NCBI GenBank assembly: GCA_000091205.1
Contig: AP006493.2
Reading direction: 5' to 3' (one strand)
Source of the DNA: Cyanidioschyzon merolae
Taxonomy: Eukaryota
Length of the DNA: 64,000 bases
Below are positions 37,448 through 37,852 of this stretch, piece after piece. The notes beneath the pieces were generated by a model, which was not told the DNA's origin, did not search any database, and was given only the letters and a program-made list of their open reading frames with translations. The position numbers were made by a program, and so were the translations under genes. The first letter of the stretch is position 1, and the number at the start of each line of letters is the position of its first letter.

Positions 37448-37852
37448 ATGCAGATCTTCGTCAAGACGCTGACCGGAAAAACCATCACACTGGAGGTAGA
37501 ACCCTCGGACACGATAGAGAACGTGAAGAGCAAGATTCAGGACAAGGAGGGTATCCCACCAGACCAGCAGCGTCTTATCTTCGCCGGCAAGCAGCTGGAG
37601 GACGGTCGCACGCTGAGCGACTACAACATTCAGAAGGAGAGCACACTCCACCTTGTTCTCCGCCTCCGCGGTGGTTACATCAGGGTGGTCGTAGAAGACG
37701 GAGAGGGTGCAGTGTCCACTGGGTACGCTTCGTATCCGACAACGACGACAATGGGGTCGTCTGCTGAGACGGCGGAAGCGGTCTCGACGTCAGAGCTGAG
37801 CAAGTCAAGTTGCCCACGATGTGCAGCCTACGCCTCTATCAATGGGAGCTGA
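37448..37852 (+). CDS. UBI: Ubiquitin monomer (76 aa, canonical sequence ending RLRGG) fused in frame to a 58-aa Ser/Thr/Ala-rich, non-ribosomal C-terminal extension
   Basis: [76 protein letters not shown] at 37448-37675, then [29 protein letters not shown]...[13 protein letters not shown]. The tail is not L40e or S27a. Confidence 0.85.

Follow-up and report, generated by a model that had tools for sequence, protein, structure and literature searches.

On the plus strand of a 64-kb stretch of the Cyanidioschyzon merolae genome, referred to here as the window, a single open reading frame (ORF) of 134 codons and a stop, from ATG to TGA, encodes ubiquitin followed in frame by 58 further residues. 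The locus raises the question of what these residues are: part of a ribosomal fusion obscured by an unrecognised intron, a peptide cargo in its own right, the remnant of an older fusion partner, or a cap that is discarded when ubiquitin is released. Our analysis favours the last of these. We consider it probable that the gene is a colinear, intron-less, stand-alone mono-ubiquitin precursor gene with a long, orphan, nearly neutrally evolving and disposable cap. Of the candidates listed in a first-pass annotation of this DNA, a single ubiquitin gene with an unusually long cap is the one that fits the evidence best.

A known gene with one ubiquitin unit

The ORF is CMK296C, because the published CMK296C 3′-utr sequence equals positions 37850–38127 of the window, starting at the TGA of the ORF. 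The 134-residue protein matches BAM80632.1 / XP_005536668.1 of C. merolae 10D exactly, and both neighbouring genes are likewise exact matches to proteins of that strain (Table 1). The stop codon lies 302 bp from the convergent gene for RNase H2 subunit A (RNase H2A). Upstream of RNase H2A, at about 39470–39530, we also observe a trinucleotide repeat whose ORF translations are runs of Q on the plus strand and runs of L or C on the minus strand.

The combination of ubiquitin and tail in CMK296C is already known, being present in public annotation of a gene that is in laboratory use. GenBank labels BAM80632.1 "ubiquitin with short C-terminal extension", CMK296C has served as the cytosolic ubiquitin of C. 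merolae in a phylogeny (PMC5487736), and C. merolae vectors and expression cassettes routinely take their terminator from its 3′ flank, the 278-bp synthetic CMK296C 3′ utr fragment being given in Supplementary Table S1 of PMC8642924. Ribosome profiling found very high translation of a "Ubiquitin C" in C. merolae, reported with no gene identifier (PMC11808204). In our literature search we found no paper that discusses the tail of CMK296C.

Table 1. Positions of CMK296C, its parts and its neighbours in the 64-kb window
Feature	Position	Strand	Basis or remark
Proteasome Rpt4 ATPase	34724–35923	−	Neighbour of CMK296C
Conserved upstream 14-mer GCTTCGCGACGCGC, candidate promoter element	37344–37357	+	About 100 nt before the ATG; common to Cyanidiococcus
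CMK296C, 134 codons and stop	37448–37852	+	Exact match to BAM80632.1 / XP_005536668.1
Ubiquitin coding part, 76 codons (MQIFVKT...LRLRGG)	37448–37675	+	PF00240, identity, AF2
C-terminal tail, 58 codons (residues 77–134); acidic, S/T/A/G-rich, orphan	37676–37849	+	Translation, Pfam, phmmer, AF2
Junction segment YIRVVVE, directly after Gly76	37676–37696	+	Alignment with Cyanidiococcus YIKVTFE
TGA stop of the precursor ORF	37850–37852	+	Published CMK296C 3′ utr fragment begins here
"ubiquitin/CMK296C 3′-utr" terminator, 278 bp	37850–38127	+	Exact match to published synthetic fragment
Conserved 3′ block TGGAAAGCGGTAAAGT, with UAAA at 37978–37981	37968–37983	+	Conservation in Cyanidiococcus
RNase H2 subunit A (RNase H2A)	38155–39141	−	Neighbour, convergent with CMK296C

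The first 76 codons had been read as canonical ubiquitin, and the comparisons bear this out. Residues 3–74 match Pfam PF00240 with an E value of 7.7e-33, and residues 1–76 are identical to the human ubiquitin used as the tblastn query at 75 of 76 positions (98.7%; E=1e-46), with A28S as the sole difference. The domain closes with LRLRGG at residues 71–76 (...HLVLRLRGG), after which comes Tyr77. This C-terminal LRLRGG is needed for the activation and conjugation of ubiquitin. In the AF2 model, residues 1–76 have a pLDDT of 84–95 and the order of strands and helices is that expected for ubiquitin. A tblastn search of the 64-kb window gave no second ubiquitin match, so the gene lacks the at least two head-to-tail repeats that make a polyubiquitin.

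In addition to the ubiquitin frame, a 132-codon ORF is open in another frame of the plus strand (37369–37767), where it covers all of the ubiquitin codons and runs on into the tail. The same overlapping ORF is open in two contigs (L010 and L012). In all likelihood it arises from the codon composition of the ubiquitin gene and is no gene itself.

The extension and the ends of the gene

The tail is dominated by small and hydroxylated residues, with S, T, A or G at 31 of its 58 positions, and it carries a net charge of −3 with a pI of 4.4, whereas the computed net charge of eL40 is +14. The first-pass annotation had quoted the residues of the tail exactly and had described the extension as not basic and as having no similarity to L40e or S27a, and both descriptions hold. 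Scanned against Pfam at E≤10, the tail gave no Ribosomal_L40e, Ribosomal_S27 or ubiquitin match, the only hit being a sub-threshold one to CpXC (E=0.078). With human and yeast L40e as queries, tblastn gave only noise across the 64 kb, the best match (E=0.03) lying elsewhere in the window and none downstream of CMK296C; with human S27a and yeast S31, the best matches in the 64 kb had E values of about 0.4–0.7 at unrelated positions, again with none downstream. The same annotation had asked for a search of the genome for separate Ub-L40e and Ub-S27a genes and for polyubiquitin, and for the 64-kb window the answer from tblastn is that none was found. A Ub-eL40 fusion has a basic extension of about 52 residues with a C4 zinc ribbon and a Ribosomal_L40e match, and a Ub-eS31 fusion a basic extension of 76–80 residues with a zinc ribbon and a Ribosomal_S27 match; the CMK296C tail corresponds to neither.

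A gene of the same structure is found in Cyanidiococcus yangmingshanensis, at a locus (L001) that we reached via the Rpt4 orthologue. At this locus, RNase HII (RNase H2A) and Rpt4 flank a ubiquitin gene of 133 aa, and the three genes are arranged as in C. merolae. The encoded protein, KAK4531905.1, is annotated as "hypothetical protein" and consists of 76 ubiquitin residues, all of them identical to those of CMK296C despite saturated synonymous sites (pS=0.78), and a tail of 57 residues, YIKVTFENALVADDVQTLFSRENEFVSVAETNAAVMEAVPGSARCAPGLVKSAVKWE. Residue 77 is Tyr in both species.

The first-pass annotation had also suggested that the tail results from an unrecognised intron just after the GG codons, and a sequencing frameshift that hides an early stop would have the same effect of making the tail an artefact of annotation. 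Such tails are rare, and a GTG does occur 12 nt past the GG codons. However, C. merolae has only 27 known introns with the 5′ splice-site consensus GUAAGU (PMC8831791), and there is no GTAAG or GTRAGT between 37448 and 38160, so the gene does not carry the signal of an intron-containing gene. There is also no L40e- or S27a-like coding sequence in the window that could supply a second exon, only 302 bp being left before RNase H2A. The ORF is likewise present in 19 independently assembled sequences, and the syntenic gene of Cyanidiococcus has a diverged in-frame tail of approximately equal length. Finally, a conserved UAAA follows the stop, and the flank that begins at the CMK296C stop works as a 3′-UTR in transgenes. 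With no 5′ splice site, no downstream exon, a syntenic gene of the same structure and the UAAA all pointing the same way, we rejected an intron or frameshift as extremely improbable.

The UAAA also bears on where the transcript may end. A search for contigs derived from transcripts of the gene gave genomic ones only. In C. merolae, the poly(A) signal UAAA occurs in 93% of genes, 3–35 nt before the cleavage site (PMC8831791). The TAAA at 37978 is the sole plus-strand TAAA from the ATG of CMK296C to RNase H2A and lies about 125 nt after the stop. It is part of the block TGGAAAGCGGTAAAGT, the counterpart of which in Cyanidiococcus is TGGAAAGTGGTAAAGT (L001, about 6454–6469, minus strand). The stretch TGGAAAG[C/T]GGTAAAGT is the only well-conserved one in the 3′ intergenic region of the two species. 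From its position and conservation, the UAAA is likely the poly(A) signal of CMK296C, and because the block that contains it is this probable signal, the block is probably the active core of the CMK296C terminator. On the other side of the gene, a comparison of the proximal 400 nt of 5′ flank in C. merolae and Cyanidiococcus yields a single run of shared 10-mers, GCTTCGCGACGCGC. This 14-mer lies at a similar distance from the respective ATG (−104 and −93) and contains the palindrome TCGCGA, and we regard it as a candidate promoter element of CMK296C.

Conservation and variation of the tail

The tails of C. merolae and Cyanidiococcus are identical at only 24% of their residues. Their global BLOSUM62 alignment scores 17, as opposed to −20 ± 9 for shuffled sequences (p=2e-4), which indicates collinear similarity, and the p value rises to 0.08 once the first seven residues are removed. 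Clear conservation within the tail is limited to YI[RK]V..E, at the junction with ubiquitin (YIRVVVE in C. merolae and YIKVTFE in Cyanidiococcus); the two tails can further be aligned at an AET..AV motif and at one Cys, and the net charge is −3 in both tails. At the DNA level, the two genera are 58% identical over the tail (z=4.1) and 81% identical over the ubiquitin part. The conservation of the tail DNA is no better than that of the flanking non-coding DNA (z=2.8 and 4.9).

The reading frame and length of the tail are retained to a greater degree than its residues. The tail measures 58 aa in C. merolae and 57 aa in Cyanidiococcus, and the sole gap in the tail alignment is one of 3 nt, whereas many gaps in the 3′ flank have lengths that are not multiples of 3. 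Of the possible frames through the tail, only that of ubiquitin is without stops in both species. In substitution-only neutral simulations at d=0.6–1.2, the tail escapes a premature stop with P=0.09–0.13 and stays within 55–61 codons with P=0.03–0.05; these statistics are modest and come from a single interspecies pair, and the simulations ignore indels, which would push the P values lower. Judged from the sequences, there is a fair likelihood, somewhat better than even, that selection has acted on an in-frame tail of about 57–58 residues with a roughly constant character and on YI[R/K]V..E, with little constraint elsewhere. To function as a cap, an extension needs one residue only. That some 57–58 codons are kept in two genera, together with AET..AV and the aligned Cys, is a hint that the tail may do more than cap.

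To describe constraint within Cyanidioschyzon, we used polymorphism counts and set dN/dS between the genera aside, because synonymous sites between them are saturated (pS=0.78). The sample comprises 19 sequences with nine distinct CDS haplotypes, drawn from strain 10D, hot-spring metagenome contigs and one Logan assembly. The ubiquitin part (228 nt) has one variable site, which is synonymous. The tail (174 nt) has eight, six of them nonsynonymous and two synonymous, and RNase H2A (987 nt) has 14, nine nonsynonymous and five synonymous; the 3′ flank (302 nt) has four. The amino-acid changes in the tail are I78V, G92E, S104L, T114M, C125S and A126E, and no nonsense or frameshift allele of the tail was seen in the 19 sequences. 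The 6:2 ratio of nonsynonymous to synonymous changes is about that expected under neutrality. Variable sites are approximately three times as dense in the tail as in the 3′ flank (8/174 versus 4/302, p=0.036) or in RNase H2A (14/987, p=0.011), and the difference from the synonymous sites of RNase H2A is not significant (p=0.16). The raised polymorphism of the tail could reflect diversifying selection instead of neutrality.

Two features of these natural sequences are of note apart from the counts. The tail variants occur in several combinations, S104L being found with C125S, with A126E or with I78V, a pattern suggestive of natural haplotypes that have recombined or of metagenome assemblies that are chimeric. 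In addition, the JGI contig Ga0506620_000271 (L006, 1–2960) ceases to be related to the C. merolae window upstream of −40, counted from the ubiquitin gene, and lacks Rpt4, whereas every other contig is colinear with it. Either this break reflects a natural strain with a rearrangement or insertion, or the assembly is chimeric.

Beyond Cyanidiococcus, the tail is an orphan. The first-pass annotation had called for a protein search with the 58-aa tail. We ran phmmer exhaustively against 1.84 billion representative proteins and found no homologue beyond Cyanidioschyzon-like fragments; two of the matches are mis-called ORFs of Cyanidioschyzon-like sequence, and the other two are giant proteins of low complexity. 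A scan of the JGI metagenome collection with a degenerate DNA pattern from the start of the tail (...[IV]xV), aimed at intermediate relatives, found three contigs, all Cyanidioschyzon-like. When the full 134-aa protein was used as the query, polyubiquitins dominated and there was no tail-bearing relative among the 120 matches listed. The alignment of the two tails gave two candidates, neither of which scored, in a word index of 5.8 billion proteins, a result of little weight given that the index also missed known tail-bearing members and that its negatives are unreliable for short, compositionally biased queries. Three metagenome protein calls (P0010, P0037 and P0038) join a foreign or out-of-frame N or C terminus to part of a CMK296C-type gene, with P0037 beginning in frame +2 relative to ubiquitin and P0038 departing from the tail after ...STSEL. 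These calls, which are what the 50%-identity representative library contains for proteins of the CMK296C type, look like gene-calling or assembly artefacts. The structure prediction for residues 80–134 has a pLDDT below 50, and the tail is probably disordered; this low confidence comes from a single-sequence AF2 run and is compatible with disorder without proving it.

These observations can be set against the proposal, also made in the first-pass annotation, that the extension is a lineage-specific cargo, that is, a functional peptide of the Cyanidioschyzonaceae produced stoichiometrically with ubiquitin and released by deubiquitinases in the manner of eL40 and eS31 or of the extension peptides of cyst-nematode ubiquitin proteins. 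The retention of ORF, frame and length (58 and 57 aa) in two genera despite saturated synonymous sites is as that proposal would have it. The aligned positions of YI[RK]V..E, AET..AV and one Cys, with a global alignment p of 2e-4, and the equal net charge of both tails point in the same direction, and the extensions of nematode proteins likewise vary strongly between species while their ubiquitin is nearly identical (PMC6864184). What weakens the idea of a cargo is the near-neutral evolution of the tail: the 6:2 polymorphism ratio approximates the neutral expectation, the second Cys of CPRC is lost in some sequences through C125S, and the 24% identity between genera is accompanied by a p value of only 0.08 outside the first seven residues. 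With no homologue elsewhere in the protein and metagenome searches and no confident structure predicted by AF2, we consider a functional cargo unlikely.

A further proposal concerns where the tail came from and is compatible with its being a disposable cap. In this case the tail would be an evolutionary remnant, derived by decay from an eL40 tail or from the second repeat of a former polyubiquitin gene, and would owe its retention to a spacer role alone. The YI(R/K)V after the GG codons bears a loose resemblance to QIFV in strand 1 of ubiquitin, with a Gly where Gly10 would fall, but the alignment of the two tails, compared with ubiquitin in hhalign, reaches a probability of 0.1%, and descent from a ubiquitin repeat is not supported. 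As for eL40, its 52 residues come near the 58 of the tail in length, and strain 10D has a CxxC; the charge of the tail is nonetheless opposite to that of eL40, and the Pfam scan at E≤10 found no trace of ubiquitin, L40e or S27. We rejected the CxxC as the relic of a zinc ribbon, as its second Cys is polymorphic within Cyanidioschyzon and the motif is missing in Cyanidiococcus. The tail has no conserved zinc-binding cysteines, and the earlier statement that it contains no C4 zinc ribbon stands. An origin from either remnant strikes us as very doubtful.

A probable disposable cap behind ubiquitin

The evidence is best accommodated by a disposable cap, for which we propose the following sequence of events. 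The ribosome would make a 134-aa precursor from CMK296C. Ub-X fusions are cleaved by deubiquitinases unless X is Pro. In CMK296C the residue that follows Gly76 and opens the extension is not Pro, as for a precursor processed by deubiquitinases, and because X is Tyr in both genera, we infer that deubiquitinases cut after Gly76 to free one canonical ubiquitin. Until then, the tail would act as a cap and spacer that keeps the Gly-Gly blocked and makes a very short ORF longer. In the Arg/N-degron pathway, Tyr at an N terminus is destabilising. The freed tail, with Tyr at its N terminus and probably disordered, would be expected to undergo rapid degradation.

Like the polyubiquitin genes (yeast UBI4 and human UBB/UBC), CMK296C is likely devoted to the supply of free ubiquitin, with no ribosomal protein attached. 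In both cases the last Gly-Gly is blocked by poorly conserved residues that differ between species and are there for removal by deubiquitinases. CMK296C differs from polyubiquitin in having a single ubiquitin unit without tandem repeats and a tail that is not ubiquitin-like (hhalign, 0.1%), and its cap comprises 58 residues, with the length kept between two genera, rather than one or a few. With the ribosomal fusions Ub-eL40 (UBA52 type) and Ub-eS31/S27a (RPS27A type) it shares an N-terminal ubiquitin and an extension of 50–80 residues directly after GG. In contrast to eL40 and eS31, the tail of CMK296C has no Ribosomal_L40e or Ribosomal_S27 similarity, is acidic (net charge −3) instead of strongly basic, lacks conserved zinc-binding cysteines and evolves nearly neutrally instead of being highly conserved.

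The premise of the first-pass annotation that ubiquitin is encoded only as polyubiquitin, Ub-L40e, Ub-S27a or with a tiny cap proves too narrow, as non-ribosomal extensions are documented in other lineages. In Bigelowiella natans, ubiquitin monomers carry C-terminal extensions, and numerous further fusions are found in Bigelowiella and Guillardia (PMC6332867); in the ubiquitin extension proteins of cyst nematodes, ubiquitin is nearly identical and the extension widely variable between species (PMC6864184). Like CMK296C, these proteins combine mono-ubiquitin with a lineage-specific, non-ribosomal C-terminal extension. The cyst-nematode proteins differ in being secreted effectors with a signal peptide and short extensions, whereas CMK296C starts directly with MQIFVKT. 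By phmmer, the CMK296C tail has no sequence similarity to the nematode or Bigelowiella extensions, and the algal cases involve different fusion partners. CMK296C is an ordinary annotated housekeeping gene and does not add a new kind of system.

A more specific role for the disposable cap can be envisaged, in which the tail is selected for its length and its acidic, unstructured character as a spacer. Such a spacer might allow the ubiquitin domain to leave the ribosomal exit tunnel, fold and undergo processing ahead of termination, or it might bring what would otherwise be a 77-codon ORF to a length that is translated efficiently; this would fit a tail whose length is kept without its sequence. 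Alternatively, the tail may serve as a bioactive peptide that evolves fast and is produced in very large quantity. We regard this more specific reading, in either form, as distinctly unlikely. To our knowledge, bare 76-codon ubiquitin genes are very rare in nature. If the spacer role were true, it would explain this rarity as well as the presence of some 58 nearly random codons behind a highly used ubiquitin gene in a red alga with a minimal genome.

CMK296C offers a clean natural example of a ubiquitin precursor with a non-ribosomal extension, one that is about the length of eL40, evolves in a near-neutral manner, and is nevertheless open and constant in length in two genera. As C. merolae is tractable by homologous recombination, the requirements on an extension behind ubiquitin are directly testable in this organism.
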